Assembly: GCA_965285935.1 (NCBI GenBank)
Contig: OZ260664.1
Location: forward strand, 4,588,001-4,652,000
DNA from: Ophelia neglecta
Lineage: Eukaryota
Direction: 5' to 3'
Length of the DNA stretch: 64,000 nucleotides
Positions 1 to 36,952 of the stretch are shown piece after piece (the first letter of the stretch is position 1; each line of letters opens with the position of its first letter). Made by a program: the position numbers and the translations under genes. Below the pieces are notes generated by a model that was given only the letters and a program-made list of their open reading frames with translations, had not been told where the DNA came from and ran no database searches.

Positions 1-1131
1 ACTTTTAACATGGGTTATTTGTGTCTTTGGTAAACGATCCATTCTCATACTTGGTGCGTATGTTTGGAGTGGATAATCCTCGTTTATCTCGTGCGTTACG
101 CTTCTTAGGAATCTATACCCGAATATTTCTTTCATAAATGTCCGGAATCTTTGACCAAATACGAAATAAACAAGGAAGTTAAGAGATGAGTTTATAACCA
201 TAAATAATTGACTTACAAGATTCAATCTGATGAGTGCTTTACTGAATTCCCTTGTGAATATGGCCGTTTTAATCTTCCGCTCAACAACTGCTGCCATTCT
301 TAGAAATAGTTCGGGCGTCTCACAGACAATAAAAAGTAGAACAATTATAATTAAGACCCGAGTGGCGTTGTTCTCGCTGTAGTCTGAGGTAGTGCTACTG
401 TGCCGATGACGCCTCTTTGAGTTGTAAATAGCCTGCACAAGGCGAGCGTTCATATAGGACAATGCGAAAAGGGGCACGATATACAGCAGGATTATACACG
501 CCCCCTGTTTGTAGATGTCGTAATAAAGTGGATGATTGAACTGAGGGCTGGTCACACTACGAATTAAAGTAGTATTATTGCAGGGATTAAACCACTCTAC
601 GATACAGCTGTCAAAATATCTGGGCAGGTTAAAAATGATACCAGCGATAAAGACACACACAGCTGTCCTTCGTCTAGTGTCTCTTTTGAACATTTGAAGT
701 GCAAAGAATGGCTTACATATGTAGATATACCTGTCTAAAGTAACCAGTACAATAGTCCAAATGGTGATGGTCTGACAAGTCTTTAGCATGGGAAAGATGA
801 CTGGCTGCATCTCGATATAGTGGCGGTACACGGGAATCAAATACTTTAGCGGATATCTTAAAATTGCAACTATAAGATACAGTCCATCAGCCAGAGCCAG
901 CACCTGAAGTAGTAACGTGACCTCGCGCCTCTCCTTGTCTCGACGAAAAACAACAAAAGTCAATACATTACCAAATATCCCTAACAGACACACGAGCCCG
1001 ATCAGATAAAGCTCTACCAAACGTTGTAGGTTAATAAAAGGGCGGCTCACGGAAGCTGCCGATACGTTGTCATGTAAGAGAAAACATTGTGAAATATTCA
1101 TCACAATGAGACCACACCCTTGATTATACAT
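1..1131 (-). CDS. Intronless class A 7TM peptide GPCR, FMRFamide-receptor-like; 3' end beyond the window
   Basis: Hand translation is open from ATG 1131 (or 1101, MNIS) to base 1. Motifs: TM1 LGIFGNVL, TM2 LALADGLYL, TM3 TIWTIVLVTLDRYIYICKPF, TM4 FNLPRYFD, TM5 YIVPLFALSYMN, TM6 FIVCETPE, TM7 VINSSLNFLVY, helix 8 GQRFR. Absent from the ORF track because the stop is outside the window. Confidence 0.95.
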   Translation of the reverse strand, partial: MYNQGCGLIVMNISQCFLLHDNVSAASVSRPFINLQRLVELYLIGLVCLLGIFGNVLTFVVFRRDKERREVTLLLQVLALADGLYLIVAILRYPLKYLIPVYRHYIEMQPVIFPMLKTCQTITIWTIVLVTLDRYIYICKPFFALQMFKRDTRRRTAVCVFIAGIIFNLPRYFDSCIVEWFNPCNNTTLIRSVTSPQFNHPLYYDIYKQGACIILLYIVPLFALSYMNARLVQAIYNSKRRHRHSSTTSDYSENNATRVLIIIVLLFIVCETPELFLRMAAVVERKIKTAIFTREFSKALIRLNLVSQLFMVINSSLNFLVYFVFGQRFRTFMKEIFGYRFLRSVTHEINEDYPLQTYAPSMRMDRLPKTQITHVKS

Positions 1132-2312
1132 TACCGTAATTAAATAGTGGCAAAGGGAATATGGCTGTAACCTTTGGATGAAAAAGGAAAAGGCGATTGC
1201 GCTGTTCTGTATGCTGAATAGTGTCAGGTATTGAAGTAGTTCGGATTGCGCTCTTGTCTTCTGAAGAATACTGTATTCTGATAAGAAGTGTCTTCTGAGG
1301 AGTTGTTTCGACTGATGTATAGTATCTTCTGATGAGTATTGTTAGGTTTTGAAGTAGTGAAGAAACCCTTCAGCAAAAGAAATCATATAACTATATATAA
1401 CCAAATTACTCAGCACTTTTACCATTACACCATTGGTGTTAAAGAATGTCAGAAACATAGAAAAAGCGTATGTACACAACTGCTGCAAGGCAATGACTCA
1501 TTGGTTTCTTTGTTGTTGAGATTTTTTATTAATAAAAATCTAAAAGGATTGACCAAGGCGAGGTTATTCCACTTTTTTTCCACTATGTAGATTTTATCCG
1601 ATAATTAGTTTAAGCTATCACGTTATCACCACAACTGTAGTAGAGAATCATGTCAATGACCAGTTCCATGGAACTCTATACGTCTCAACAGACAAGCACA
1701 ACAACGCACTATGGTCACAGATGACCATTTATATGAAAGTAAATCACATTCATTCAATCTGGTCAGTTCAGGAACATAGACATTGACGAAGTATCTATCC
1801 TTTGACCTGTGTTGTAAGCCACTATTCCAATATAGTGGTCTTCTTAAGGATAAATGTGGCACGATGAATCCTATATATTAGCTCTGCCCTCAACTGACAG
1901 GTTGTCCTTTTACAATGAGCAGAGCACAGGTTGGACAAGCCTTGTTCTGGTTTCCAATCAATGTTATTTAGTTCGGGCGAAGAGTTGGTTGAGACAAGGT
2001 AATCTCCGTTAATAAATAAACGATTTGGTTCGGGCTAGCCAAATTTATATAGCTGATGAATAATGGCCCCAAAGAGACTGAATCCGATTTGGCTTTAACA
2101 TCCAGAGTATCCTTAATGCCGCACTTGTTGACAGGTTTGCAAGTGTACAGCGTTGCGCTTGTCACACCAGGCATGGTCAAGGTTGAGATAATCTAAAATG
2201 GGTTTTGTCTTCGTATTTCCACAGTTAGAGCAGCGGTCAAGTAAAGTGCGCGATATTCTGACGTAGTGAATTGCTTAAATAAGTCTTAGTCCAACGCCAT
2301 GAGGAAGCTTAC

Positions 2313-4216: not shown

Positions 4217-7200
4217 CTACCTATACACGTTTTCACCGAGCAGAGCCGAGCGGACGAGATATAGCGAGTGGATGAGACGTGCAACAACGTCGCCCTCCGG
4301 AGCACCGCCGGCAGACAACAACCAGAGGAACACGTCTATATCACAATGTGAACACGAGTGTGAACACCGGGATTCGACGAGTTGACGTAGCGGGCCTCGG
4401 TATGGTTCTAGTACATGGCATCTTAACAGGAGGTGAATGTCGTCTTCGGGAGCTTGCTGGCACATACGACAGAGATTAAAAAAGGGGTTAACAGAGGGAG
4501 TTGGCCATCCGACTACCCGCCTCCGGTTGACCTCAATACAAATGTCCCCCACTGATAGCTTAACCATGAAGCGGCACGCCCTAAGACTGCCCGGTATCCT
4601 GACAGCTGTTCGCCACCAGTCACTCATCATTGGCTTAGTGTACACAGTGCGGAAGGTTGACAGACCACCGTATGTCAGGCACGAAGCTCGGAAATAGCTG
4701 TCAGTCGAGAGCTTGATAGCCCGACGAACAGAGGTTTTCCAACGATGATTTTCCGGAGGCACCCTGCTGAAAATGATATCTTCCAACAGCGTGTCTAGGC
4801 CGTATTTGTGGCATGCTCGGGTCATCTGAGCGATTGGGCCTACTCGTGATTGGTCTCCTTCGTGTTGGATGTCCAACACCCGGTGGATCACCAGGTTCCG
4901 TAGAAGTGAATTCGGCTTTGCTGTAAGAAGGCTGTATAACAACAATAACCTGTTGTAGTCCAGCTCTGCTTCTACAGAAAACCATCCTAGAGTGCTGTAG
5001 CTTACAGGCAGGGGTACGGAAGGAGAGAGGCCCTGGATCCGCTTTCCATGAAACCTGTGTGCCGTCTCTAGATTTCCTAGGTCTGAGGGAGACATGTCTA
5101 CCAATTCCAGACCATAGAGCATGCTGGGGAGTACGATACTACGGTAAAGTTTACTGGCTATGATAGGCTGGAGTCCTCCAGACGAACTACCCATGCCAAA
5201 TAGCGCATTCATAGCCCGCCTTGCCTTTGAGATTCTCTCGTCAATCACTTCTGTCATACACTTGCAGTTCTGCGTAGTCGGGATGCCCAGATGAGAGCAG
5301 CTCTTCGTGGGAAGAAGGTGGTGACCGTCGACGAGAAGGGCAGAGTCCTTCCTTTTGTGTGCCTGTAATGGGTGGAACACCATGTAGATTGACTTTTTCG
5401 CGTTGAAACTAAAGCGCCATTGCCTACTATAATCCAGCGCAGCATCTACTAGCCTCTGCAGATTAGTCAGGAACAGGGACATGATGGCAACGTCATCTGC
5501 GTACGCGGGATCTCCACATGAATATTGGTATATACTAGTGCAGAGACCCATATTTTCCAGCAGCTTTAGGAAGTCGGCAATGTAGATTTGGTATAGCCTC
5601 ATCGAGAACTTCCCTCCCTGAAAGACTCCTTGTAACACCGGGAAGAATTTAGAGAGCGATCCGCCCAGTCTGACAGAGCACCGGAAGTCACTGTACCACA
5701 GTAGCAAAATCCTCCACAGCTTCCCATCTATACCAATCCGATACAGTTTGTGAAAGAGGCCATCGATCCAGACGCGATCGAAGGCCTTTCGAGTGTCCAG
5801 GAAAGCAACATGTACCGAACTTCCTCTTTCATTGTTATACGCTATCACCTCACGAACAAGTAATGCAGTGTGTTTACTGGAGAGCCCCGGCAAGGCGGCA
5901 CCTTGCATCCGGCAGAGTCGGTCATCACTTATTAGCCAGTCATCACATCTCGACAGCAGGGCGCCCTCAAAAAATTTGCACAGCACCGTGAGTAGGGTTA
6001 TCTTACGATAATTGTCTTTTTCCTTTCGGTCCTTCTTCCCTCCTTTGAAAAGGGGTATAGCGATTCCTCTCCGGAAGGAATCTGGCAAAATTTCGTGCTT
6101 TACTATCCCGTTAACTAGCGCAGTGAGGGCAAAGGCAGTGTTAGTACCACCATAGTACACGTGCTCTGGGTCGATGCCGTCGTGGCCGCCTGTCTTACCA
6201 CAGTTCACTTTCAACATTAGTTTTTGAATTTCAGGCACTGTAAATGGTATTGACAAGAAGGGACACGGATTATATTCTGATGAACGACGCATCTCGATAA
6301 TCGAAGACTCAATATGGCTCTTGAACTTCTCGTCGTATCCCCCGTCATTGCTGGGAGTAGCAAGCTTCTCAAAGTAAGCCCTCCATTCCTCACACATCGC
6401 TTCTGGCGTAGCTACCATTTCCCCTGACTCTGTACGTATTGGGCTGAAACGGGGGCCCTGGGGGGCTTTCCTGCGTTTGTTGACTAGGTACCAGAAGAAA
6501 CGGTGATCCAATTCGTGGCTGTCACAGAGTTTCACTTGTTCTCTATGTTCATATTCATGCTCGGCATGCCGCCGGGCTTGTCTATACACTCGTTTGGCGT
6601 CTTTATAAGCTCTATAGATCGGGTTTGAAGCATCTCGGGGGCGTCCTGCCAGGTCCCATCTTTCCCGACATTCAAAGTTCTCGTTTTTGGTTTTACTAAG
6701 GCCTCTTGACCAATAGGGTTTCAAGTATGGCCGATAGCACGAGGTTGGAAGACAGTTGTCCGAAGACGCGTGGAAGGCCTTGCTAAGGTTGTTTGCGAAG
6801 CTGTCTATGTGACTAGAATAAAGACAGGGCTCGTCATCTTCAGTGCTGAGACCATACTCCGATATCAGCTGCGATAGCGCGGCTTGCAGCGGAGTAGTAT
6901 ACAGTTCATTTTTCTGTACTCGGCTTAATCTATGCCACGCTTTTTTTTGCTGAGTGAAAACAATGGGGGCATGAAATACAAAATGATCTGTCGACACAGC
7001 GATATATACAGGTAGGTGGTCTGATGTATTTTGTACACACTCGTCAAAGACACTTACACATTTTACATTATCAGACATACTATCAGTTAAAAGGCAGTGA
7101 TCTATATATGACATTCGCCCGGAGCTATTACAAAAAGTATATGTCGGTCCTGTACACCTGTTTGACAAATCGACCAATATCAGGTCGCTCTCCTTACAAA

Positions 7201-7771
7201 GGTTGAGGATACTACGACCGTTAAGGGTAGAGGAACCCCATCCTCTCGGACCACCCTCCGGACCAATGTGGGCATTTAAATCACCTAATACTACACATGG
7301 TCCCGCTGCTTTCTGGACTTGGATTAATTCGTATAACTGATCTATGACATGCGAGGGATCTGCTATACGACAACCTTCATAGGGTAAGTATACACCAATA
7401 ACATTGAATACATAGTGATCGTTAGAGACTTGTAAGCCAGTGATTCTGTCAGAGTCAGAGCTAATTATCGACACATTAGTGATTGTTTTACGATAGAGTA
7501 TAGCGATACCTCCGTGTCCTATCTTATGACCGTAGTCTGCACAGTCAAGCATAGAGCTGGCTTTAGCAGTTTTGTAACATGTAAAATCATTGTGAATATC
7601 ATCCAGTTTGTAAAGCTCACATTGGTACAACCAATGTTCGGTCACGACAAGAATATCACATTTATCAAGTAGTTCACACAAATATTGTCTTTTACCATGA
7701 ATGCCATGGGCATTCCATGTAATAAAACGAAGGCAGTTACTGTATTGTGAGTCTATGTTTGATTCTACCAT
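4217..7771 (-). CDS. LINE ORF2: apurinic-like endonuclease, reverse transcriptase, C-terminal CCHC zinc knuckle (1184 aa)
   Basis: APE motifs TWNAHG, TEHWL, GDLNAH, YIDH, SDHLP. RT motifs YRKITLL, FLDTRKAFDRV, GVFQGGKFS, YADD, HLGI. C-terminal CRMC..ED..HLLLRC. Confidence 0.97.
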   Translation of the reverse strand: MVESNIDSQYSNCLRFITWNAHGIHGKRQYLCELLDKCDILVVTEHWLYQCELYKLDDIHNDFTCYKTAKASSMLDCADYGHKIGHGGIAILYRKTITNVSIISSDSDRITGLQVSNDHYVFNVIGVYLPYEGCRIADPSHVIDQLYELIQVQKAAGPCVVLGDLNAHIGPEGGPRGWGSSTLNGRSILNLCKESDLILVDLSNRCTGPTYTFCNSSGRMSYIDHCLLTDSMSDNVKCVSVFDECVQNTSDHLPVYIAVSTDHFVFHAPIVFTQQKKAWHRLSRVQKNELYTTPLQAALSQLISEYGLSTEDDEPCLYSSHIDSFANNLSKAFHASSDNCLPTSCYRPYLKPYWSRGLSKTKNENFECRERWDLAGRPRDASNPIYRAYKDAKRVYRQARRHAEHEYEHREQVKLCDSHELDHRFFWYLVNKRRKAPQGPRFSPIRTESGEMVATPEAMCEEWRAYFEKLATPSNDGGYDEKFKSHIESSIIEMRRSSEYNPCPFLSIPFTVPEIQKLMLKVNCGKTGGHDGIDPEHVYYGGTNTAFALTALVNGIVKHEILPDSFRRGIAIPLFKGGKKDRKEKDNYRKITLLTVLCKFFEGALLSRCDDWLISDDRLCRMQGAALPGLSSKHTALLVREVIAYNNERGSSVHVAFLDTRKAFDRVWIDGLFHKLYRIGIDGKLWRILLLWYSDFRCSVRLGGSLSKFFPVLQGVFQGGKFSMRLYQIYIADFLKLLENMGLCTSIYQYSCGDPAYADDVAIMSLFLTNLQRLVDAALDYSRQWRFSFNAKKSIYMVFHPLQAHKRKDSALLVDGHHLLPTKSCSHLGIPTTQNCKCMTEVIDERISKARRAMNALFGMGSSSGGLQPIIASKLYRSIVLPSMLYGLELVDMSPSDLGNLETAHRFHGKRIQGLSPSVPLPVSYSTLGWFSVEAELDYNRLLLLYSLLTAKPNSLLRNLVIHRVLDIQHEGDQSRVGPIAQMTRACHKYGLDTLLEDIIFSRVPPENHRWKTSVRRAIKLSTDSYFRASCLTYGGLSTFRTVYTKPMMSDWWRTAVRIPGSLRACRFMVKLSVGDICIEVNRRRVVGWPTPSVNPFFNLCRMCQQAPEDDIHLLLRCHVLEPYRGPLRQLVESRCSHSCSHCDIDVFLWLLSAGGAPEGDVVARLIHSLYLVRSALLGENVYR

Positions 7772-7774
7772 GAT

Positions 7775-9349
7775 TTAACTAGAATAATAACTGTCGTAAT
7801 TACAATAGTAATCGTTGTCTTTGTCGTAGTCGTGGCTGTAGTACTCGTGTTCTCGCCTGTCATCGTAGTCTCTCTGTCCAGATTCTACGCGCTCACGGCG
7901 ATTGTACTGCTGGTCGTACCGGTGATTGTTAAGTTGGCGATCATGATCCCGACGTCTTTGTTGTCTTTCCTCTCGACTGACTCTATTAGGGGGTTCAGAT
8001 GACCAGACACGGCAATCTATACCCTCCGGCCAGAATCCCGCGTTGAGGCATCGGTCAGCCTGTGAGGCCGGAACTACGATCATACAGCCCAGCGATGTGG
8101 TGTAGACACCGCGTCTAGGCCTTATCACTCGGGCCGAGATTATAGTGATGTTTTTGGTGTTTGTCCAACCTCTAAGGTTAGATATAATGTCCTTGTCCGA
8201 TTCTTCTTCTACGTAGATGTTTTGTACGTAAAGCGAGGTGTCGTCTTCGCGCCTGTGACCTTTTAGGGCTGACCCCGTCCTTTTGGTAGGTCCACAAGCT
8301 GCAGAAGACCGGTTTGTAGTGGGGTCGGGCATTGGTTCAACGCCACTTCGTTGGTTGTGCCCTTTCCTTCGTCGGTTCTTTACATCCGTCCATAGACCTT
8401 CTTTTTGAGTGAGGACGCCGCTGTAGGACGTTTGTTGCTCAGACACCTGTTCATTTTTATCGGTCCAACGGAGTGGTTCAGATGGCGATGATACGGGAGC
8501 TACAGATGCGCTTGGCTCCCTGCCGATACCAGATACACGCTCATTGTTAGTTTGGGTTTTGAGCGACACCGAGTCAGTCTTAGATTTTCCATCGTTTATT
8601 TCTATTTCCGCTTCGTGGGTGGTCAAGTTTGGGACTACAGCATTTGTTGTTTTCCCGCCGCTTGTCATGACACTATCTTCGCTACTTTTTGATTGGTCAC
8701 TGATCATTTGTAGGATGCGCGCTAGCAGACCATCAATGGTGGTTTGTTGTGCTGTCACCCTCTCCTTCAGGTATGCAATTTCTCCATTACATTTACAGTT
8801 ACACCCTTTCTCCAAGTCTGTGACTCTTTCAGAAAGGGATTGCACAGTGGCGGCAACTCTAGCGATCTCTACCATGGCCGGAAGCGAGCTTGGGTCCGGT
8901 TTGGTCGTTTTCAAGTGATCTGGTGTATCCAACTGGTTCTTTTGGGCTTTGACAACTTCGTCCGGGAGTATTGACATGGAACTAAAACAGTTCCTAGGGA
9001 GGTCGTTCAGGAGACAGGAAACATAGAGATATAGGGATAAGACATCCTCGGCCAACGCCTCCTGAGCTCTCTCCCCACGACGATCTTTGGGTTTCAGGTT
9101 AAACCCTTGGCATATACCGTTCGCCTCACATTGTTCGTCGAAGCGTCTTGTAGCTTCGGCAAGAAGGCAGTCGCGGGCATCCTTTAATTCTTCCCGGTCT
9201 ATATCGCGGGCGAGGGACTCTATTACCACTTGCCTTGGATCTATATCAGCTTGCAACAGAATATTGGAGATGGCACCGTGAATGTCTTGCAGGATTGGCG
9301 GTCGTGGCATTTGTGCACTGTCTATCTGGGTGCCGACTAGTTGAGACAT
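7775..9349 (-). CDS. LINE ORF1 (coiled-coil plus RRM-like nucleic-acid chaperone, 524 aa)
   Basis: Directly upstream of ORF2. Heptad-like VQSLSERVTDLE..IAYLKERV segment; C-terminal LYVQNI...FWPEGIDCRVW motif typical of LINE ORF1; R/D/Y-rich tail. Confidence 0.9.
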   Translation of the reverse strand: MSQLVGTQIDSAQMPRPPILQDIHGAISNILLQADIDPRQVVIESLARDIDREELKDARDCLLAEATRRFDEQCEANGICQGFNLKPKDRRGERAQEALAEDVLSLYLYVSCLLNDLPRNCFSSMSILPDEVVKAQKNQLDTPDHLKTTKPDPSSLPAMVEIARVAATVQSLSERVTDLEKGCNCKCNGEIAYLKERVTAQQTTIDGLLARILQMISDQSKSSEDSVMTSGGKTTNAVVPNLTTHEAEIEINDGKSKTDSVSLKTQTNNERVSGIGREPSASVAPVSSPSEPLRWTDKNEQVSEQQTSYSGVLTQKEGLWTDVKNRRRKGHNQRSGVEPMPDPTTNRSSAACGPTKRTGSALKGHRREDDTSLYVQNIYVEEESDKDIISNLRGWTNTKNITIISARVIRPRRGVYTTSLGCMIVVPASQADRCLNAGFWPEGIDCRVWSSEPPNRVSREERQQRRRDHDRQLNNHRYDQQYNRRERVESGQRDYDDRREHEYYSHDYDKDNDYYCNYDSYYSS

Positions 9350-9516
9350 GGTTCATAGGTTTGTAAGTAGTTCTTCTACACGTCTACCGATTGACCTTTG
9401 TCAGAACCTCCTGGTTAAGAAACTACTTACGCTCTCCAACGGCCAGCCGGACGGCCGCTTTCACACTTGAGCGATGTGTATGCTATTCTCTGGAAGAATA
9501 ACGGCGATAATACCCA

Positions 9517-15215: not shown

Positions 15216-15375
15216 TGGTCGACTTGTGGGAGATCATTTCGTGATAGACGCCATTCATAGATGTTATGCTGGCATTAACTATCTTAGTTGAATTGTTTTT
15301 TAATGCTTCCGAGCCAGAGATACGGGACTTACATAACAACATATAGGTATTCAGGATTTTCCTGATCTTTGACCC
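15216..15375 (+). repeat. Dispersed repeat, second copy at 28944-29093
   Basis: Shared ggtcgacttgtgggag, catagatgttat, cgagccagagata, ggactta, ctttgaccct. Confidence 0.8.
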
Positions 15376-15398
15376 TGAGTGCACTTAGACAAATCGAA

Positions 15399-16190
15399 AT
15401 GCGTTGCAAAACTTCTTGTTTTGTGTGTATTTGTAGTTTAATAGTTTCTGTATTGACTGGCGTGGCTGCGGTGTTCTACGGAGGCAATTATTTTGGATTA
15501 TGGTTGTTTTCTGTATGTTGGACGATCATGACATTAGCATTATTAATACCCTGGTGTTGTACTTTGGGTACAGAAGGTAAAATGACTAGTCGACACCTAC
15601 AAATGTCTTCACCTCTCAAGGATTCAGGCACGACGTGGACAAAAGATTTCCTCACCACTTCTGCAATAGCTCGATTTCTAACTGTGGAGGAGCTGTGGGG
15701 GAATTTTAACAGATTATCACAAATACGAAGATCGCAAATGCTCATACACTGTCATGACGTTGTGCTATTTTTACTTATTGCCACCTCAGATCCAAGGAAA
15801 CTATTGCCACGGAAGAGTTTACCCTGCGGTCGCCCTACCTTTCACAATTTCCACTTAGATATAGGCCTACCGGAAACCCATATCGGCACACCCTATTTCC
15901 CGATAATACCCATCCTGGACGAGATGGGGTTACGTCTTGCCCATGTTGATGTGATGCGCATAGTACGCACATTATCGGGAACATGTCTCTCGTTAGGTCA
16001 GTCCTGTCGTCAGGCGATAAGGAAGTCATTAAGGCCCAATGTGATATTTGGCAATGAGAAACTACCACTTCCTCTACAGATGAAGAAATATTTATTGTTT
16101 GAGTACACGCTGGACGAACTATTGACCTTAAATGTTCATATGTATGTGGCAATGATTGAGAAGGATCTTATCGATATGATTAGCGCCTAA
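15399..16190 (+). CDS. Intronless SOCS-box protein with two predicted N-terminal transmembrane helices (263 aa)
   Basis: First ATG at 15399. C-terminal LSLGQSCRQAIRKSL...EKLPLPLQMKKYLLF fits BC box plus LPLP Cul5 box. N-terminal hydrophobic stretches. AATAAA at ~16711. Confidence 0.75.
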   Translation: MRCKTSCFVCICSLIVSVLTGVAAVFYGGNYFGLWLFSVCWTIMTLALLIPWCCTLGTEGKMTSRHLQMSSPLKDSGTTWTKDFLTTSAIARFLTVEELWGNFNRLSQIRRSQMLIHCHDVVLFLLIATSDPRKLLPRKSLPCGRPTFHNFHLDIGLPETHIGTPYFPIIPILDEMGLRLAHVDVMRIVRTLSGTCLSLGQSCRQAIRKSLRPNVIFGNEKLPLPLQMKKYLLFEYTLDELLTLNVHMYVAMIEKDLIDMISA

Positions 16191-17795: not shown

Positions 17796-17945
17796 GCTCA
17801 CTTTTCAAACAGTGAATGTCGAGGTTACTACATATGGAGATCATTCTAATGTGGCAAGGTACATTACTTCCTCGTCGATAACGTTTTTGTCCAAGTGGGT
17901 AGTGAGGTGATTCGCCAAACTATTGGTGTTCAAATGAGGACCGAT
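17796..17945 (+). mobile_element. Penelope-like RT fragment (continuation motif)
   Basis: AHFSNSECRGYYIWRSF*CGKVHYFLVDNVFVQVGSEVIRQTIGVQMRTD resembles the PLE FLLDNIF...QIVGIPMGT motif. Confidence 0.75.
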
Positions 17946-17949
17946 GGAT

Positions 17950-18660
17950 GATGACCGGGGACCCGTGGGCCTGAGGCTGACGGTTGTTGACTGTAGGCAT
18001 GAGGCTGATGGTTGATGACTGTGGGCCTGAGGCTGACGGTTGATGACTGTGGGCCTGAGGCTGACGGTTGATGACTATAGGCCTGTAGGCTGACGGTTGA
18101 TGACTGTAGGCCTGTAGGCTAACGGTGTATGACTGAGGGCCTGTAGGCTGACGGTTGATGACTGTAGGCCTGTAGGCCGACGGTTGATGACTGTAGGCCT
18201 GTAGGCTAACGGTGTATGACTGAGGGCCTGTAGGCTGACGGTTGATGACTGTAGGCCTGTAGGCTGACGGTTGATGACTGTAGGCCTGTAGGCTGACGGT
18301 TGATGATTGTGGGCCTGAGGCTGACGGTTGATGACTGTAGGCCTGTAGGCTAACGGTTGATTACTGTGGGCCTGAGGCTGACGGTTGATGACTGTGGGCC
18401 TGTAGGCTGACGGTTGATGACTGTAGGCCTCTAGGCTGACGGTTAATGACTGTAGGCCTGTAGGCTGACGGTTGATGACTGTAGGCCTGTAGGCTAACGG
18501 TTAATGACTGTAGGCCTGTAGGCTAACGGTTGATTACTGTGGGCCTGAGGCTGACGGTTGATGACTGTGGGCCTGTAGGCTGACGGTTGATGACTGTAGG
18601 CCTGTAGGCTAACGGTTGATGACTGTGGGCCTGAGGCTGACGGTTGATGATCGTGGACTG
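17950..18660. repeat. Minisatellite, 28-29-bp unit GATGACTGTAGGCCTGTAGGCTGACGGTT, ~24 copies
   Basis: Directly visible tandem array with variant units. Confidence 0.98.
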
Positions 18661-19452
18661 CAGCTAGCCCCCATTTTAAATATTTTTGTGTTTGCCATCT
18701 CTGAATTTGATACTACTGTAATTTGGCCTTAAGTAGTAAACAACCATAACTCTAAACGTAATATTTCAATCTATGATCTACTTAAACAATTCCTCCGTAA
18801 GCAGTATCATCGCGCTTGAATATAAGTAGACAACATTAAATTATATTTTTACCTAGCAACCTCAGGAAAACATCCGTTGCCTTGGACAAATCAACTCTTA
18901 CAGCGGGTGCCGTTTTGAAGTTTTGAAATCGCTGCGGCATTTACGTCAATTGGAGTAATGTTAAGGTCCTGATCAGAATATAAATATTACATGCTTCGTT
19001 CGGTGATCAATTGTTGTCCTTGTGTCATGCGAGTTTTGGCCCAATTGACAGCTCATTTCGCCGTTCTACCAGCCTTTATTGTCCAGTGTCTGCTATTTTA
19101 TTGATCGTTCATAATCAATATTCTTCTGTTAATTCATCATGAACCCAATACAAACACATTCATACATAATTTGAATGGTTAATTGCTTAATTGTTAAATA
19201 CAAGTAAAAGTAGACAAACCATAATCATGAACGAAATGTTGCACTTATAATGTCCAAATGTCTATGCCACATGTAAAGTTTATTAGAAAGCGGGCCGATT
19301 GCTTTTCAAATGGCATGGCTAATGTTTTAAAACAAGAGATGAACCCCCCCCCCACCCCCACCCCCACCCCACCCCCCACAAAAAGCAGAAGCAACTTTCA
19401 TAAAGAGTAAACATATATTCCATCACCATCTAACATACGTAAACCTCTCAGG

Positions 19453-20981: not shown

Positions 20982-21178
20982 CTATCTGACAGTATGACCA
21001 GTAGGTGGATTAGTAGTATGTGGCATACCCCTCAATGTTTTGAGCAGATCGTAAAACCTTTGTTTGATGAAATGATAAAAATCATAGTCAAATTTCAACT
21101 TGGTTTTCATTATTGCTATTGTGGTGTTGGTTGGCGGAGGTTTCTTCTTTGTTTTCAATTTCTGTTTAAAGTCGTCTT
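20982..21178 (-). CDS. Sulfotransferase exon 7 (terminal)
   Basis: atgcag|DDFKQK...FDYDFYHFIKQRF...HTVR*. Confidence 0.9.
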
Positions 21179-24100
21179 CTGCATAAGTAAAGAATAAACG
21201 TCTTAATGGTCCGAATAAAATAAGCTGAACAATAAGTTGTAATTCCAGTGATTCCTACAGACAATATATTTGAACTGTATCAAAATGTTATTGGAAATTT
21301 TAAAGATGTAAAGTTTGTTTCACTTGAGACCAGTTATTAGTACCCGGGAGGGGGAGGGAGTTGGACATCAGAGGGCAAAATCAGAAAATCCCCTCATCGC
21401 AACCCCCCGATCCCCATCCCCAAACCCTGCCTGTTTCCCAAACCTCCTGTTTTGTCAAGATTAAATCTTACTAAAAGAAAAAATTCAAGGAGCTTAAGTG
21501 ATTTGAATGACCATTGCCATCTATACGTATGTTTCACCCACCCCCATGTTGGACCTCTTATTTCTATATGCGTTCATCCTGTCTAGTAATAGCAGTTTGT
21601 TTAGTGCTGAAAGTTAAGATTAGGAAGTTTTACTTACTTAGGTAATTAATTATCTGAGAAAATATAACTAGAATGCGTACTTTTGAGTGCAAATGTTTTT
21701 GCAGCATTGGTGAAATACCGAGGGAACATGATCTCGATGGCTTCCAGAAACGAGTCGACGTCCTCGGCGATACCAACCACCGAGTAGTGCTTGATCACAT
21801 TCTCTTTGGCTCGATCCAACGCCCATTGACTAGGAGTGCTAAAACATTAGAATAGATCAACTATATTTATTAATATTTAGCGTAGTTTATTGTCAAGTGT
21901 ATTGTATATTGTGAGGTTTAACAGTAACATATATAAAGATTACATGACCGAATAGGGGTTGAATTCGAAAAAAGAGATCACTTTTTATAAGTCTTCGGGT
22001 AATATGTTTTTTTCTGTAATCTAACCATGGGTCGCTCTCCCATCCCAATTACTATTATACACATCCAATTGTTAATTTTATTGGACTGTTATTTAATAAC
22101 TAAAGATTATCGGATTCTGAGCACAGGAGTAGGGTATAACCCTACAATAATGACGTGTCTACGTACTAGCATCGTGGGTCCTGACCACAGAAGTAGGGAA
22201 TGATCCTGAAGTAACCGCCGGGTCTCGGCCCCACACATTCAGGGTGATCTGTCTGGACACATTCGTCATAGGTCTAAACAACAAACAAATCTTAAGAAAT
22301 TCTACAAAGATGAAAACATAAAGTTGCACTAATGGCAAGCCGCATTCTGGATATAACACCTGTTTCATTCTGTATGGTGCACTACACCACCACTGTTTTT
22401 CTGCCCATTGAGAAATTAGTACTATTTATGTCTCATTTAATTCAATAAATGTCTAATATACATGTAAATTGCTGTGAGAGGTTACTGTCATGCATGTTAG
22501 TTGGCGCCACTCACCCTGTGTTTGTCCTCTGCCTTCTTGGGGAACATGCGACCGAGGTGGAATCGTATGAAGTAGTAGTCCGACACCAGTCTCTGCAGTG
22601 GCTCCCTCACGACGTTGATGTAGATCGGCTGAGGGAAGCCATGGAAATGAAAGAGTCAAACTTTTATAACTTTTTCAAAGCCCTTTTTCATACTGGGTAC
22701 ACTGGATATACTGGTTGTATCTAATCCTCTGTATAAAAACGGGCTGCTGTCCACACTTCTGATTACAAAGAGACGAACCTTTCTTTGTTAAGGGACGACT
22801 GCCCCCCCCCCCTCTGCCCCTAGCCCCTTTCTCGCAGTAAAACGGCAACCCCCCCCCCCCCCCAAGATGGACGGCCTACCCACCTTCGGTATAGGAAAAT
22901 ACCGACCTTCATCTCTAAAATAAGTGGAGGGCTGGCCCACTTCTATGTTTAAAAGGAAAGGCTAGCCCCCTTCTCCGTGTAGAAGGTCAGTAAAGTCTAA
23001 TTGTACCGCTGTCCAAACACATGTTTATCACATGACAAACAACAATTAGCAGCACCGTATAGGTTTATGGTCTAAGTCTCAAACTTACCTTCCCTTGTGT
23101 ACCTGTAATATCGGACTTTTTAAATGAAGTCAGTTGGTATACGTGTATTTACACCCCCTACAATGCAGTGTACGTGTATTGACCAGACTTCCAACTGCGT
23201 ATGCGTGTGGTTACATACTTTCACTGTAGTGAACATGTATTTACTGACCTTTTGAAATCTATGAAGAAGACATGTCTGACGAAAACAGTGGGTCTGTCGT
23301 TCTGATATAATTTCTCTATCAATTCTCTCTGAAATAAGCCACAAACGCCGTATTAATCATAAAAGTATTATTTGAATTATCACATAAAAATAATCCGAGA
23401 ATGATAGTGTATCATTGGTAAATACAGTTTTCCTATAGGGACAGGGGTAACCAGTTGACAGTAATGTTTTAATCCATTTTTATAATACTGTCAGATCTTT
23501 GACCCTATGAAGGCTAGAGCCACTAGCAATAAAAAGGAGAGTTGGCCAAAACTTTATTAACTTTTTCCCGTACGATTCTCCGCAACCTCTCAGGAGTAGG
23601 ACCCCCTCCACTAATTGATTGGCCATTCTAGCCATACCTCCCCACCCCAATCCCCTCCACGTAAGAAGGGAGGCTCCCCGCCTCTGAACCCACTCTTCTT
23701 ATGATTCCCCCTAACCGAAATTTTTTTTTTTTTTTAAGTTCACCTCTTTCTTGAAAGTAATACTCTCCCTGTCATAGATAGTGGAAATGACGAGATTAAA
23801 GTCGTTATGTCTTGAGACGTTCTTCATGATGAGGTAAGTCGCCGTACTGGCACACTTGGGGATCCTGTTGTACATGACAAGCCGGTCGTTTTCGTATGGG
23901 GCAGCTAGGTGGTGCGCAGTCTGACCCTGGGCCCCGAGAAGGGTAGAGTGGTGAACCTGGTCCCTGACGTAGGTAGGCTTGCGATCCTCATCCCCTAGGG
24001 GAGCAGACTTGTGACCCTTGGCGGTAGCTCCCCCTACAGGGCTTTCACGGGGTGAAAAAGTGGTCCTCTCAATGGTCTTTAAGTTTGGTGTCCCCTGTAG

Positions 24101-25087
24101 CAATAGAAATAAATTAAACTTTTAGTGTATCTCTTCGCTTATTTATATATACAGTGAAACCAGCGTTAAAAACCACCTCTATAATCAGACCTGCTGTCAA
24201 CTCGGACCACTAATATGAGGCCTGCGCTGTATACATTCAATGTTAAACAACCTTCGATATCAGACCAGTATTTTCCAGTCCCTTGGGTGGTCTTAATTCA
24301 CAGGTTTCACTGAATTGGCAAAAATTAGCCGAATAAACGGGACGAAGCAGCCAGCTACGCATATATATAACGGACCAAGAAGAAGCGGTCTGGAGTATCT
24401 TGTGTTCTAGGACAGCGTCTGCCGCCAAGGCACGGTACGCTTTGATTAGTGATTAGAATATAATACGTCACTGTAATGCGTGTTGAAGGAAAATATATGG
24501 CATTAAGTATATGACTACTTTATTCCACTTAGTTGCATAGATATAGCGAATAGCTTTTTGTACAGTACAAGTCTCATTTGCGTAAAAATCCTGGTTAAAG
24601 GTATGATAAATAAATGCCAAAGTGGAACTCTTCATGGAAAACTTAATTTAAACGAACACAGTGTCACTGATGAAAGAATCATAGCTAATATTTCTTATTA
24701 TTTCCTTTATCAACAAAGGTAAAATTAGTAAGAGTAACCCACATGCTGACAATAACCCTCTGATATATATTTAAACCCAGCAGACTGTATCAATGTATAT
24801 AAAACCCACCTCACACAGAACATATGTGAATAGTTAAGCGTCTTAAAGTACTGTTGCCGATCAAATCAAACTTACAATTTTACAGCAATACCAAAAATAC
24901 AGTTACTCACTGTCAACCTGATGTTCTCATCTCTTGCAGCTTCGTCCAATTTCATTTTGTCAAGCCACTTGATTGAAGAAGTCACATATATCACACATAT
25001 CAATGTAATGAACAGAGTGACCTTGCGAAAGGGTGAGGTTAAAATCGTACTGCCACAAAATGAACGGTCACTGGATTCTTGATTCAT
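20982..25087 (-). CDS. Uronyl 2-O-sulfotransferase / HS2ST-like gene, 7 coding exons
   Basis: Exons 25087-24911, 24094-23744, 23328-23249, ~22644-22515, 22273-22167, 21838-21681, 21178-20982 join in phase at GT-AG sites except the exon 4 acceptor. Type II TM anchor, PAPS loop YNRIPKCAST, YINVVREPLQRLVSDYYF, IPYFCG, WALDRAKENV, YDFYHFIKQRF. AATAAA at ~20930. Confidence 0.93.
21681..21838 (-). CDS. Sulfotransferase exon 6
   Basis: ttttag|TPSQWALDRAKENVIKHYSVVGIAED...FPRYF...|gtacgc. Confidence 0.9.
22167..22273 (-). CDS. Sulfotransferase exon 5
   Basis: gtttag|TYDECVQTDHPEC...IIPYFCGQDPRC|gtacgt. Confidence 0.9.
22515..22644 (-). CDS. Sulfotransferase exon 4 (acceptor anomalous)
   Basis: HGFPQPIYINVVREPLQRLVSDYYFIRF...KHR|gtgagt; no AG at the expected acceptor. 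Confidence 0.85.
23249..23328 (-). CDS. Sulfotransferase exon 3
   Basis: tttcag|RELIEKLYQNDRPTVFVRHVFFIDFK(R)|gtcagt, phase 2. Confidence 0.9.
23744..24094 (-). CDS. Sulfotransferase exon 2 (stem and PAPS-binding loop)
   Basis: ctacag|GTPNLK...YNRIPKCAST...FKKE|gtgaac. Confidence 0.9.
24152..24312. mobile_element. Tc1/mariner-pogo-type MITE in sulfotransferase intron 1
   Basis: TA|CAGTGAAACC ... GGTTTCACTG terminal inverted repeats; shorter relative at 34799-34888. Confidence 0.8.
24911..25087 (-). CDS. Sulfotransferase exon 1 (cytoplasmic tail and TM anchor)
   Basis: MNQESS...VTLFITLICVIYV...IRLT|gtgagt, phase 0. Confidence 0.8.
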
Positions 25088-31321: not shown

Positions 31322-31433
31322 CTATCTTTTGTTTGACCGCAACCTTCTTTTGTTTAAGGGAGGAGACTCTTGCGATGGCACCGTTGGGAAATCCGCTGCA
31401 TCCACTGTTTCACATACGTCTTCCTGGTCGCAC
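31322..31433 (-). CDS. UbL gene terminal exon
   Basis: tttaag|CDQEDVCETVDAADFPTVPSQESPPLNKRRLRSNKR*; phase matches exon H. Confidence 0.75.
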
Positions 31434-34400
31434 CTTAAACCCAAGCAATATTTAATGTATAATAACGTATTTACAGAACATATATGCTCTGTATGGGGAA
31501 AGTTTTCTATCAACAGACCTTAAATCAACAGCCATATTTACAGAGTAGCTGAATTACCACACACAAATAAAATAAGCCAATATTCTATTGTCTTCCGAGC
31601 AAGCACCTCGTAAAAGTGTGGAGATATTGGCTTCTTTGGTGTGAATATAAATTGTCGTAGGCCGACATATTCAAGATGCAACAACCAATAATAGTTGGAA
31701 TAGCCTTCAGATTTGGTAATTTATGTAGCAATAATAAAGGATTTTTTTTGCCATGAATGCACTAGTTGGCTTATATTTGCTCAGAATATGCAAGAAGTAT
31801 GCACAGTTTAATGTTTAGCACACTAATAACGTTAAAGCTGCTGTACACTGATAGTAGTATCAGTAAGGCAGGTAGACTTGCTTTACAAAGAAACAAATGC
31901 AAAGTTAAGGAAAAAAATTGAAATATTATTTAGTACAGATAATTTAAAATATTAGTATATTTTTTACCTTTCGACCAGTCTCAAGGTGAATTTTGTTTCT
32001 CTTGACCGATCCACTCTCATTGCGTCCACAGTTTGGGCACTTTGCAGACTGACTTTTCCAGGAGTTTTGGTTCCCGCTGTCAAGTGAGAATCGGGAGAGG
32101 TTTTCTTCTTCTTTACGGACCTGTCAATTTCTAAGAACAAAGAGCCAGTACTTATTTAAGTAAAACGTCACTGCATCGTCTGGATTTCTATAGTATCCAT
32201 GGTAATAACATTTAATAATGGTTTTTTTATTAATTACGGAAATACCTACTTATAGGTAATTATCGATTGAGTATCTATGATCTATTAACGATTAGCAGCC
32301 ATGACTAGACAGCGGACAAACCCTGAAAAAAAGTATTTTCGGTACTCTTAGATTGATTACCTAACATGACGTCACCAGCTTTTATTTGGAGACTCGGTTC
32401 AAAAGGTCTACTCCTCAACCCTGAAATAACAAACAACATCTAGCTTTATTTTCTAAATGTATACGAAGTTAAAATGTTTGTAGGCATATTATACGCTTAC
32501 CGACCAAATGTCACTTTGATTGTATTCATCCAGGACAGTATCTCTGCAAAATGTTTTAACATAAAAGAATTTTTTTATTACAAATGCTCATACACATGCC
32601 AAATTCAACATTAGTAAGTTTGCAAAGTTAACATGGTTGAATAGGAATGAAACCACATGGTGGGTTTTGTATGGGAGTAGAGACGGCAACGAAATAAAGC
32701 TTTAAACTCAATTAAAATCAAATGCATGATTCCAGTTTCCCTAATAGCTGGGAAGTCTCTAACACAACCTTCATCTGGCAGTTGTCTTCCAGCAACAATC
32801 AGTCGCTGCTGATCTGGCGGTAGTCCTTCCTTCATATGTAACATTAGTCTCACGGTCTTAATGCTGGTGTCATCGGATAACAACAAGGGAGCGACCCGGC
32901 CCGTCAGACAATACACTAAAACCTTTTTTTTTTTTTTTAAACCAAAAAAAAACATTTAACATTATCCTGTAGCATATCATGATTAATGTAAGAGATCTAA
33001 ACGTGCGCCTCCGTATAAGGCTTTCCCTTATTGGACTTTAGAATGTTATTAGTATTATTGAGGTCACCATTCATAATGACAATATCAATTGAAAGCATGT
33101 GAGGAGTATAACGAAAAGCTATCGTGGCAGGATTCAAAGATCAGCCTGGTATCTTTATGCCACAAAGAATAACTGCCAAAAACAAATACAAGAAAAAACT
33201 ATGAACTGCTAGTGCCATGTTTTCATAAAATTGTGAATCACTGAAATAAACTACACCAGTATGCATATGCCTTTATGGAGAAACAGAACCCTGCACGACA
33301 TATTTAGCGAATGTTTCCAACATGATATACATGTTTGTTCGGTCTATTCCTCATAAAATTAATACAGGGAAAATCAAAAATTACACAGAAATACGCTCAT
33401 GTGCAATATGAAAATAATTGCAAGATTCCTGTCAAATTCAACTTCATATAATTCACATAATACTGTTTATTTATATTGCAATATATGCATAAGCTGTGCC
33501 TGCCGCCATTCGAAGCATAAGTATATCTTTTTGTGATATCTTGGTTCAATATAATTTCTGGTACACGTCTGATATGCAACGTATCAGTTAATGGAAAATG
33601 TTTTTTACTATTTAAAATGATCCCTAAAATTTTACCCTAACTAATATTTGTTCTTGTGAAGATGAGTTTAAAAACGCGTCTGTAATATATTCCATTTAAA
33701 AACCAACAGCCCGTTTGTGGAGCAAGCCATGTCTCTGCCCTTCCGTAAAAATAATGCAATAATATCAAACTCACATCGAATGAGGTTGGGTCAGGTCTTT
33801 CATCAAATACCTCTAAAACCAGGATGCCAGTATTTGCAGCTTCAAGTATTTCATTCTTCCGCAGCAGAGAGTAAATATGGTCATTCTCAATGGTCTGGAA
33901 AAAAAACACTTCTAGCATTTCGAAACAAACTCAATTTGACAAGTTAACAAAAAATTAGATGCCATGCTATGATTAGCATTACCTTGATCCACGGAGACGA
34001 ACAGAAGAGTCTTCCAATCACAGTCGACAAATAGAATATGGGCAGTTCTAGCTCAGCGACCATTTGAAATACATCCTTCATCTTTGGTTCAGAGAACGCA
34101 CGGTGCTCAAAAGTGCGACCTTTATATTTAATTCTTACTGAGCTGATTTTTGGTAGACAGTCAATATAGTAGTGTCCTCGTTCATGGTATCCATCAAACC
34201 TGAACACAAATTTAAGACATTACATCCTGGCACGAAACCCACACTCTCTGATAGAAATTAAGATTAATATTTTTACAACCATACTGGATACAATTTATAC
34301 TTTTATACATTTATTTATACATTTTGTTGTATAATTTAAGCTTGTCTCAGTTTCAAGAAAAAGTCTACGTGGTACGTGGTAAAAAATTTCAACATTCATC

Positions 34401-36952
34401 CAGCAATTCAAGGGGATGAAAATTGTAAAATACGTGTGCTCTCCTAGCATTAAAGATTTGAACATTAAATATTTCAGGAATTTGACAGGGTAGGCATGTG
34501 TTCAGCTTGCATGTTACATTCTGAATAGCATTAATGACACGCACATCATATGATTTACATATAAGCTGTAAACAAGGCTCTTCCCTTTACAGGCCTTACA
34601 AGTTGAACGACTATTACCGGTAAGGGCCTGGGGATTGATGTATTGATACGTGTGGGCCTGTAGCAGCTGTTTCCTGATTATTTATGAGGGATTCGATGGA
34701 CTTATCTGATGAGTTTGCTTTGTCTACGGTGTATTTACTCTGTATCGGTTATGTAAAAATGTATACATATAAAACCCTGACAGGGTAAAATGGACATACA
34801 GTAAAACCTGCCCTAAAAACCACCTGCAAAATCAGACTAACAATATTAGGACCATACTGTATAGCGGAGGTGCAATCAGTTTGAACTGTTATTAACTATG
34901 ACAGCAAATGACTTTAAAAAAAAAATACTCGAATAGCTCGGAATCATGATAGATTCGCAGGCTTGCACGGCTGCTGACACGGGTGAATAATTACACTGTG
35001 AAGTAGTGTATCTAAGAGTAAGAATACTACTGATTTTGAAAGCTCATAATAATGACAAAATCTCTGGCTTGCATGGCCGCTGACCCGGATGAATGTTACT
35101 CTACGAAGTAATATTCCTAACAGGAAGTATATTGCAATGTTCAATTAGATTGAAAGGCAATTTTTTCTTTTGTATAACTAGTTTTAAGTTCGATGCTCTA
35201 ATGTAGCCAATAATGGCTGAAGACAGGTAATAACAATCGTTATTGTGAAATTCTTTCCGTATGTACTAACTGTAAAAATTGTTTGGTGTCGCCATCTAGA
35301 TCAAAAAAGAATCGTGTTCTCATGCAACTGTCCACATCTGACGAAAACCATCTTATTAAGTCATGCTTTGATGTATCAAAGACTGTGTATTTTGATGCCA
35401 AGATATCTTTGATTCTGTTCGCCAAGTCTTTGGTGGAGTGCTTCGAAAACAGACTGAACTTAGTGGGGTTGCGACAAGGCATGGACAGCGTAAACTGGAA
35501 AGAAAACATATGTCATTATTTAATCACTAGTGAAATGTGAACACGTTACCAGGCACGTTTTACTGTTTACCAAATAGAACACAACTGGATTTTTAAAGAT
35601 ACTTTTTCATATTTGATTCAGCTGCTGTTTTTTTATTAAAGGATTATTCTTGATAAACTTTCAGCCTATGTTCTTAATATGTGTAATACATATTATTTCC
35701 GAATACATTTAGACGTTTGAACATGGGGAAAGAAAACAGATTCATATGTAGGCGTGATTGGTTTTACTGACATCAATTGAATCGGCTCCTATTTCAGGAA
35801 TAAAGCTACAGGTGAGCAGGCGATTCTGATTACCGGACCCTGACCATTCCACTGTACATTCGTCCCGATAAAAGGTGAACCTTTTGGACCCATCCGCTTG
35901 TCCTATATTCCCCGAACTTTGAGATTTGAGTTGCCAAGATCCTGTAGCAAAAGATTGCGATAGTTAGTTCTATTTAACGTTCCTACTAGAATTTTTATCG
36001 AAGTAATTTGAATCCTGTTTAAATTGTAGAATGGTTTAAACATTTCTTGACTGTCTAGTGATTATAGCATATTCATTTATGTAAGATTCGAGGCAACCCT
36101 CCTTAGTTTGTGTAATAATGAGCATTTTCTTAGATTTCTCATACTTGTATGGGAAAATATGCAAACTGAGTCAGATATATGTGTATTAAAACTGTGTAGA
36201 TGGAATTATGGGAAACTCACAAGATACAATGATGTTGTATACATATGAAAATAGGGTTATATGATTAATTCATAAGTGTAATACATGTATTAGCTTTGGC
36301 GTTTCGTTTTTAAGGTAATACATTGGTTACTTTTCTAGATTTTCGATTGGCGTTTTATCACGGCTGCTGGTCAACTAGCTATCGTAAAAATAATATCACC
36401 GTAAGTTTGTCAATAATTTCATAACTGAAATTCTTCTTATGTAAACGTATTATTATGGTATTTTTACTTACTATACTGAATGCTTGTTAAAAAGATCATA
36501 TACCTTCACACAAGACCCGCAAATCTATGGGGCAATATAATGTGCAAAAAATCACTTATAAGCTTAAATAACATTGTTTTCATAACCGAAATCTGAAAGT
36601 AATTAAGATATGTAACAAGATACAAGGGAAGGGTACATTGTGAACTCATTAGGTCTTCATGCAAATACAGTGTAATCAAAGCAGGGCAGTTTCCGAGTAT
36701 GAAACTTGTCCCTAATCCATCGTGTTTCTGCTGGGCTAGGTAAAAGGTAAAATTACCTTGCTCTTTTCCATCTATGTTCAAGGTGAACCGACACGTATGC
36801 ATATTAAAGTTGATTACATTTAGGCTGTATTCTGTTCCATGATTAAGATACACTACTTCTCCCTGCGGGGTGTTAATATGTCTGCCTTCCTTGATCTCAA
36901 TAGCATAACCTGCTTGGAAAACCCCTTTGAAATCTGGGAATAATACCTCCAT
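31322..36952 (-). CDS. Multi-exon ubiquitin-like-domain protein with a split uncharacterised flanking domain
   Basis: Exons 36952-36757, 35941-35772, 35494-35271, 34199-33983, 33894-33775 and 32922-~32712 join in phase. Then 32543-32501, 32130 (or 32120)-31968 and 31433-31322. The donor after the UbL exon and the true start are uncertain. Confidence 0.8.
31968..32130 (-). CDS. UbL gene exon H
   Basis: ...TAGTKTPGKVSLQSAQTVDAMRVDRSRETKFTLRLVE(R)|gtaaaa, phase 2. Confidence 0.75.
32501..32543 (-). CDS. UbL gene candidate 43-nt exon G
   Basis: ttgcag acceptor and gtaagc donor; reading frame uncertain. Confidence 0.5.
32712..32922 (-). CDS. UbL gene exon F: ubiquitin-like domain
   Basis: VLVYCLTGR...KEGLPPDQQRLIVAGRQL..MHLIL aligns to ubiquitin; no LRGG; 3' boundary uncertain. 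Confidence 0.9.
33775..33894 (-). CDS. UbL gene exon E
   Basis: ttccag|TIENDHIY...PTSFD|gtgagt. Confidence 0.8.
33983..34199 (-). CDS. UbL gene exon D
   Basis: gttcag|FDGYHERGHYY...SPWIK|gtaatg. Confidence 0.8.
34799..34888. mobile_element. Deleted relative of the 24152 MITE
   Basis: TA|CAGTAAAACCTG..aaaaaccacct..aatcagac; degenerate right end. Confidence 0.5.
35271..35494 (-). CDS. UbL gene exon C
   Basis: ttccag|FTLSMPCRNPTKFSLFSKHSTKDLANRIKDIL...|gttagt, phase 2. Confidence 0.8.
35772..35941 (-). CDS. UbL gene exon B
   Basis: ctacag|GSWQLKSQSSGNIGQADGSKRFTFYRDE...NRLLTCSFIPEIGADSID|gtcagt. Confidence 0.8.
36757..36952 (-). CDS. UbL gene exon A
   Basis: YAIEIKEGRHINTPQGEVVYLNHGTEYSLNVINFNMHTCRFTLNIDGKEQ G|gtaatt, phase 1. 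Confidence 0.8.

Follow-up and report, generated by a model that had tools for sequence, protein, structure and literature searches.

An unnamed two-half domain enclosing a ubiquitin-like insert in Ophelia neglecta, possibly a bait-presenting clamp

What might a gene do whose ubiquitin-like (UbL) domain sits inside another, uncharacterised domain? A locus of Ophelia neglecta (GenBank assembly GCA_965285935.1) raises this question; it lies in a 64,000-nucleotide stretch of contig OZ260664.1, positions 4,588,001 to 4,652,000 of the forward strand, which is called the window here and numbered from its first base. A preliminary description, made from the letters of the window, had pointed to a ubiquitin-like cassette within a split, giant-virus-like domain, and all segments that it quoted were present on the minus strand. 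We modelled a nine-exon gene there (ATG at 36952, stop at 31322), in which both halves of an unnamed domain flank an insert of ~300 aa with the UbL at the end of the insert. This architecture is very probably real. The family and the architecture are apparently undescribed; no account of either was found in the literature at the level of titles and abstracts, and supplementary domain lists could mention them. Our reading, to which we give a probability of about 0.4, is that the gene belongs to an old animal family without a name, in which it is a rapidly evolving paralog, and that the two halves would form an immunoglobulin (Ig)-like clamp that presents a UbL-ending loop as bait or decoy to enzymes that cut or bind ubiquitin.

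A paralog at 75.30 Mb of C5 in the same genome (762-Mb assembly, 223 contigs) agrees with the gene in its first eight exons and their phases and is 49-74% identical to the window copy. The genes around the window copy are rich in introns, which suggests an animal genome. Exon 1 (36757..36952; all exons are on the minus strand) begins with the ATG at 36952, encodes the first strands of the N-half, exits in phase 1 and shares 74% identity with the paralog exon. Exon 2 (35772..35941) carries the remaining N-half up to an F-x-P-E strand and exits in phase 0 through the donor GTCAGT. The C-half is encoded by exon 8 (31968..32130, exit phase 2) and has diverged from the family more than that of the paralog. 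Scored by profile among 3588 unspliced frames, exons 1, 2 and 8 matched at E 7e-8, 2e-3 and 7e-4, respectively, the last against 1.5e-8 for the paralog exon. In the spliced model (3 targets), a family profile (A6) built from 123 contiguous relatives matched the N-half at E 1e-17 (profile positions 4-115) and the C-half at E 3.5e-6 (136-190), on either side of the insert. Exon 9 (31322..31433), the last, is homologous to exon B of the paralog in a DNA alignment whose score was reached by 2 of 500 shuffles; it has a 1-base gap near its end relative to exon B, and a basic run replaces the end of the family's proline tail. A 43-base candidate exon at 32543-32501 was rejected, as it fits no phase. 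Intron 3 contains a high-copy repeat (34519-34932) with contig depth in the thousands, and inverted 92-base copies lie near it at 34935-35131.

Do the separated halves belong to one fold? In the AlphaFold (AF2) model, a contiguous relative formed a single Ig-like sandwich, and a loop of low confidence fell exactly where the insert enters: the predicted local distance difference test (pLDDT) score was 91-98 per ten-residue block over residues 1-110 and 151-190, and 51-72 over 111-150. Exons 1, 2 and 8 of the window, folded as three chains, scored 0.58 against 0.00 for the best control, and the runs agreed in at least 60% of contacts; the signal is weak, with partner pLDDT of 49-50. When this fold test was calibrated, it passed 51 of 78 solved pairs and 2 of 108 that were mismatched, and scores of 0.60 or less held just 5 of the 78 solved pairs, but all 4 passing mismatches. 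One sandwich was predicted with confidence for the contiguous relative, and the window's own exons lend it weak support. The C-half is predicted to complete the sandwich and to clamp both ends of the loop, so that a cut in the loop would leave the halves joined. The insertion point is fixed across phages, bacteria, giant viruses and animals, and the length and content of the loop vary.

The domain itself matched no characterised family, in line with the claim that it was uncharacterised. No member of a 15-row alignment reached a significant Pfam, NCBIfam or PHROG family for it, and the 123-row profile had no match in PDB. The best sub-significant matches of the 15-row alignment were ubiquitin (E 0.0075), which most likely comes from a UbL-bearing member, and DUF7918 (PF25534; E 0.031), matched by 1 of the 15 members, below any threshold and a lead only. 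The domain may bear some likeness to DUF7918.

Within the insert, exon 6 (32712..32922; 3' boundary set by homology to the paralog) encodes the UbL, and the earlier claim of such a domain held: it matched PF00240 at E 1.9e-9 with 37.6 bits (curated cut-off 25.4; paralog UbL, 59.3 bits) and aligned to ubiquitin residues 4-71 at E 8e-11. In the ubiquitin alignment it retains the equivalents of L8, I44 and H68, with V70 replaced by I and K48 by R. Exon 7 (32361..32420; entry and exit phase 1) adds a linker and the UbL tail, which reads RLRSR without the di-glycine, against RLRGG in the C5 paralog. Upstream, exon 3 (35271..35494; 53-57% identical to the paralog exon) encodes segment 1, with a beta-beta-alpha pattern judged by eye, exon 4 (33983..34199) finishes segment 1 and holds the larger part of segment 2, and exon 5 (33775..33894; 55% identical) encodes the end of segment 2, likely its last strand. 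Two extra units of an array of UbLs had been proposed here. Segment 2 is weakly beta-grasp-like, its top beta-grasp rows (exons 4-5) being PB1 and UBX, but for segment 1 (exons 3-4) neither Pfam nor PDB nor hhalign yielded a signal (11 of 40 shuffles, with alignments just 3 rows deep). The proposal that the insert is variable agrees with its size, 302-305 aa here, as the loop of non-animal rows measures 13-110 aa (parsed in 40 of 56 rows).

Where else does the domain occur? A 3-row profile of exon 1 matched 54 proteins at E ≤0.001 among 1.84 billion; the named ones were from Stylophora and Branchiostoma, and a death effector domain (DED) was fused in 6 of 16 matches scanned. A DED was also present in named proteins of Stylophora (PFX33141.1 and LOC111347007), Pocillopora (pdam_00010298) and Branchiostoma (LOC118425622). 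These coral and amphioxus proteins share the domain and are the nearest named relatives, with a core identity of 40-49% to the C5 paralog; they differ from the window gene in their N-terminal DED and in having a short loop or one UbL instead of the 300-aa insert. UbL domains follow the N-half in the Pocillopora protein. One of the coral or amphioxus proteins is labelled CFLAR at its source; Pfam found no caspase-like domain in this group, so the label rests on the DED. Two predicted single proteins, P0023 and P0047, combine a DED, the N-half, one UbL-like insert ending in GG and the C-half; they lie on 17-kb and 46-kb contigs and may be intronless. In three amphioxus proteins (P0042, P0034 and P0064) the short loop contains YRGG and then an acidic run, which may be what is left of a UbL tail.

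Further searches returned relatives in 19 of 5922 and 213 of 5141 candidates (120 of the 213 listed), mostly environmental proteins of ~200 aa with contiguous halves. Among pattern matches in IMG/VR, 33 of 97 were relatives, as were 10 of 95 in GTDB genomes (9 of them titled cyanobacteria). A second motif brought 6 more among 89 loci examined, with 40 others not examined, including a contig of a giant-virus metagenome-assembled genome (MAG) at E 3e-43. Members with contiguous halves are known from phages, cyanobacteria, a giant-virus MAG, coral and amphioxus. GTDB, the giant-virus MAG and Foldseek rows bear out what had been stated of giant viruses and bacteria; for the occurrence with ubiquitin in molluscs, stated there as well, the searches returned no named mollusc protein. 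The label "giant-virus-like" proved too narrow, since large tailed phages dominate the viral matches. The same domain with contiguous halves was recognised in Marseillevirus, Pithovirus, Yasminevirus, Sylvanvirus, Edafosvirus, infectious spleen and kidney necrosis virus (ISKNV) ORF098, P. monodon nudivirus, large tailed phages and cyanobacteria. Unlike the window gene, these viral, phage and cyanobacterial members are single-domain, short-looped, intronless, without UbL, and uncharacterised; the core identity to most phage, cyanobacterial and giant-virus rows was 24-33% for the window copy and 31-37% for the paralog. RING-fused giant-virus rows stood at ranks 14 and 20 of the Foldseek list. 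Other searches found no relatives: a word search from the exon-1 alignment (0 of 175 candidates), exon-1 patterns in IMG/VR (0 of 75), and searches based on P0065 (0 of 7) and P0143 (0 of 12). An isolate phage collection gave no match with two queries, and cluster look-ups of 10 single-exon matches gave no full-length or named protein. The ESM Atlas pointed to viral clusters at 0.94-0.96, a result set aside because recognition fell short of the mark of the tool.

In a 44-row tree, from which 17 rows had been left out beforehand (near-duplicates, long branches, run time), the animal and presumed-animal members formed one clade (ultrafast bootstrap, UFBoot, 92) next to environmental proteins; in a 56-row tree, one phage fell inside the animal group and amphioxus outside. 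The animal members are an old group. Both trees lack a root, and "domesticated", the term of the preliminary description, is therefore neither shown nor excluded.

How does the window copy compare with its sisters? The count of paralogs, proposed earlier as a check, gave three copies in the genome: the window gene and, both on another contig, the paralog at C5:75.30 Mb and a third at C5:75.73 Mb, which has an open 500-aa frame in eight exons with the phases kept but for one shifted boundary. Further exon and protein searches of the genome gave no fourth copy, and these counts are lower bounds. A candidate at C7:20.9 Mb was rejected, since no other exon matched there; by eye its exon looks to be of SH3 type. 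The third copy (L006 6387-599 and L056 9736-9631, both minus strand) is very divergent: a PPxY motif lies within its proline-rich insert, and its last exon ends in CTLS. About one-third of the 54 exon-1 profile matches resemble its first exon by eye, so that its subfamily looks widespread. Within the window, an isolated relic of a C-half exon lies on the minus strand at 18854-18940, 13 kb from the gene (profile E 0.01, with 3588 frames scored). It has a stop immediately upstream and is followed by a donor-like GT; no companion exon was found.

The tails of these copies bear on a different account, which we consider somewhat unlikely: a non-catalytic adaptor with the sandwich as a stalk, whose UbLs bind proteasome, p97, E2 or WW-domain ligases and whose prenylated tail tethers some isoforms, much as in MUB/UBL3 and without cleavage. 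Both paralogs have candidate phase-2 last exons that end in a basic run and a CaaX box (CIII and CTLS). The CTLS exon was the sole such match among 1290 acceptor-led frames; the CIII exon resembles the adjacent last exon (9 of 2000 shuffles), and its acceptor fell below the filter. The window's last exon has no terminal cysteine or CaaX, and candidate CaaX exons were found in the paralogs alone. The adaptor account also draws on the di-glycine missing from two of the three copies, the PB1 and UBX rows of segment 2, the PPxY motif of the third copy and the MUB precedent (PMC4996978). MUB/UBL3 proteins and the model of the third copy are alike in a UbL without di-glycine and a C-terminal CaaX; MUBs are lone UbLs with the CaaX directly on the domain, whereas here another domain encloses the UbL and no CaaX is present in the window copy. 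At C5 ~75.307 Mb, tandem look-alike last exons follow a GC donor (L004 8871-9083 and 9108-9197), one with a basic run and CIII and the other with the family's proline tail; they are a possible switch between membrane-bound and soluble forms.

Is the window copy itself still a working gene? The exon chain had been described as phase-consistent, which does not hold for the assembled sequence: the exon-6 donor (32710..32711) is TT, in the context A|TTGAGT against A|GTAAGC in the paralog, and exon 6 lacks a good donor in the phase required by exon 7, the other in-phase donors being weak. Contigs from two of three DNA runs of one sample (X2 and X3) carried the GT base at 32711, and a 271-base contig of the third (X1) was identical to the window. 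Both donor alleles therefore exist. An assembly error was rejected on the X1 contig, and skipping of exon 6 was rejected for the shifted frame. With the homologous exon-6 boundary the chain forms a single open frame of 490 aa; if the TT allele is read through, the product is 412 aa long and lacks the C-half, and this is likely what that allele makes, unless it makes none. The TT donor, the loss of di-glycine and the CaaX-ending exons of the paralogs had all been overlooked.

Such losses would be expected if the window copy were a decaying duplicate in a real family whose C5 copies alone function. The donor-loss allele, the missing di-glycine and the 1-base gap in the last exon fit this account, as do the absence of the acceptor found two bases upstream of the ATG in both paralogs and the relic C-half 13 kb away. 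The scaffold-core branch of the window copy also evolved ~4 times faster than that of the paralog (0.62 versus 0.15 in the 44-row tree, 0.63 versus 0.18 in the 56-row tree), and 25 of 43 conserved columns are retained, versus 31 of 43 in the paralog. However, P0047 likewise retains just 25 of 43, and the frame of the GT allele is open over 490 codons despite a dS of 1.6-1.9 to the paralog. The corresponding dN was 0.32-0.33 and dN/dS 0.17-0.21, and among 40 listed differences of the runs (165 others exist) 11 were coding, 6 silent and 5 replacing. We regard decay as unlikely; the copy seems to have been constrained for most of its history and to be now relaxed or redirected. In any case, the C5:75.30 Mb paralog is the better experimental subject.

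Could a studied relative point to a function? A Foldseek comparison of the model of the contiguous relative with wsv390 from white spot syndrome virus (WSSV) gave E 2.7e-5, probability 1.00, a TM score of 0.44 and 10% identity, and three nimavirus wsv390-like rows gave E 2.4e-5 to 2.6e-4 at 10-11% identity. The tie is a lead and not a demonstration. ORF390, also known as WSSV449 or AAP-1, is described as a caspase inhibitor and substrate with sites at 230-233, 269-272 and 300-303 (PMC3317351), and the natural wsv390 of 321 aa carries caspase sites at these positions. If the tie holds, wsv390/AAP-1 would be the family's one CHARACTERISED relative. Its weak collinear profile stretches, 126-159 (N-half) and 291-305 (C-half), would place the first two caspase sites between the halves, in the loop, with the third lying on the C-half; another weak stretch is out of order. 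In its predicted fold wsv390 may resemble the family, as it may in a long inter-half loop that appears, weakly, to hold protease sites; it differs from the window gene in lacking a UbL and in offering caspase tetrapeptides as bait. WSSV449 is also reported to activate NF-kB and to be 16-19% alike to Tube (PMC3171479), and the main text of PMC7016691 does not mention wsv390.

Both wsv390 and WSSV449 are listed as envelope protein VP38B (PMC12656988, table; PMC3897518). This listing would suit a scaffold that is a passive structural or oligomerising module derived from virion proteins, in which the ubiquitin insert does no more than govern folding or turnover, much as ubiquitin does when fused to ribosomal proteins; it would also suit the stand-alone copies carried by large phages, of which some have capsid or tail genes next to them. 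When the neighbours of 30 phage loci were scanned (87 proteins), however, capsid, portal or prohead-protease families were near just 4, with no constant neighbour. An internal ubiquitin is also unable to serve as an N-terminal folding tag, and the DED and RING fusions suggest signalling, so that we hold the passive module to be very unlikely. By eye, one phage member (L015 642-8394) has tail sheath-like and tube-like genes next to it, as well as a thymidylate synthase that contains an intein; six others (L038, L041, L043, L047, L023 and L029) are found close to genes of the RNA ligase, PNKP, TROVE, DUF2828 or poly(A) polymerase type. An RNA-repair context was considered from the ligase, PNKP and TROVE neighbours at a few loci and rejected, as they are not conserved.

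Deubiquitinases cut at RLRGG. In the clamp reading, the halves would fold together and the inserted loop would be shown to cysteine proteases or to ubiquitin readers. A deubiquitinase might engage the loop of the RLRGG paralog as caspases engage the AAP-1 loop, with inhibition or a cleavage-triggered signal as the outcome, and in corals and amphioxus the signal could pass through the fused DED. The window copy retains the I44 surface without the di-glycine and would therefore act as an uncleavable ubiquitin mimic. The principle would be that of baculovirus P35 and P49, scaffolds that show a cleavable loop and remain bound (PMC3317351), which differ in having a caspase site where the window loop has none. 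We also entertain, as a rather doubtful extension, that the ancient sandwich is a reusable bait clamp between hosts and viruses, with caspase sites in large DNA viruses of animals (WSSV AAP-1) and RLRGG UbLs wired to DEDs or membranes in invertebrates; the host forms would be sensors or inhibitors of pathogen deubiquitinases, and the window copy an uncleavable mimic segregating with a null allele.

Several observations weigh against the clamp reading. At the level of profiles, wsv390 was not a significant match to the family (53 of 500 shuffles reached its score), and its loop register comes from non-significant stretches, one of three being out of order. A caspase-type site of the form D-x-x-D-[GSA] occurred in 0 of 9 animal loops parsed, including those of the window and its paralog (x-E-x-D was not scanned), and P35 was not among the PDB rows shown, an absence that is no exclusion. 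The di-glycine is missing from two of the three genome copies, the window copy among them. Host deubiquitinases constitutively cut linear RLRGG fusions, and a cut would then not necessarily amount to trapping. No motif is common to the phage and cyanobacterial loops, and their genes have no conserved neighbours, so the ancestral role may be unrelated. Nine DED matches in the genome were all away from the three copies, and no coding-strand DED frame was present in the stretches scanned. The immune link suggested earlier gains strength from the DED fusions and the structural tie to wsv390. A DED in the same gene, which marks cFLIP/CFLAR, was likewise absent from the window gene, and by the features tested the gene does not appear to be a member of P35, MUB or cFLIP.

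The family matters because a domain unnamed in Pfam, NCBIfam, PHROGs and PDB spans phages, cyanobacteria, giant viruses, fish and crustacean viruses, corals, amphioxus and this genome. If the wsv390 tie is true, a well-studied anti-apoptotic protein of a shrimp virus would gain a fold and a family on the host side, and many viral genes that are still uncharacterised would have their first clue to a function. If the clamp does present bait, it would be an invertebrate guard against pathogen deubiquitinases, and the RLRGG and RLRSR paralogs of one genome would be a natural test pair.

Other features were noted elsewhere in the window. A long, apparently intact element of the long interspersed nuclear element (LINE) type lies at 4220-9352 on the minus strand, with a 525-aa open reading frame (ORF) followed by an endonuclease/reverse-transcriptase ORF of 1185 aa. 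A multi-exon sulfotransferase gene, which we take to be of the 2-O-sulfotransferase type, occupies 21010-24121 on the minus strand (Sulfotransfer_2, E 0.037 on one exon). A rhodopsin-family G protein-coupled receptor (GPCR) frame was seen at 1-1341 (minus strand) and a SOCS-box frame at 15366-16187 (plus strand). At 17920-18640, a tandem repeat array with a unit of ~30 bases carries long open frames on the minus strand.

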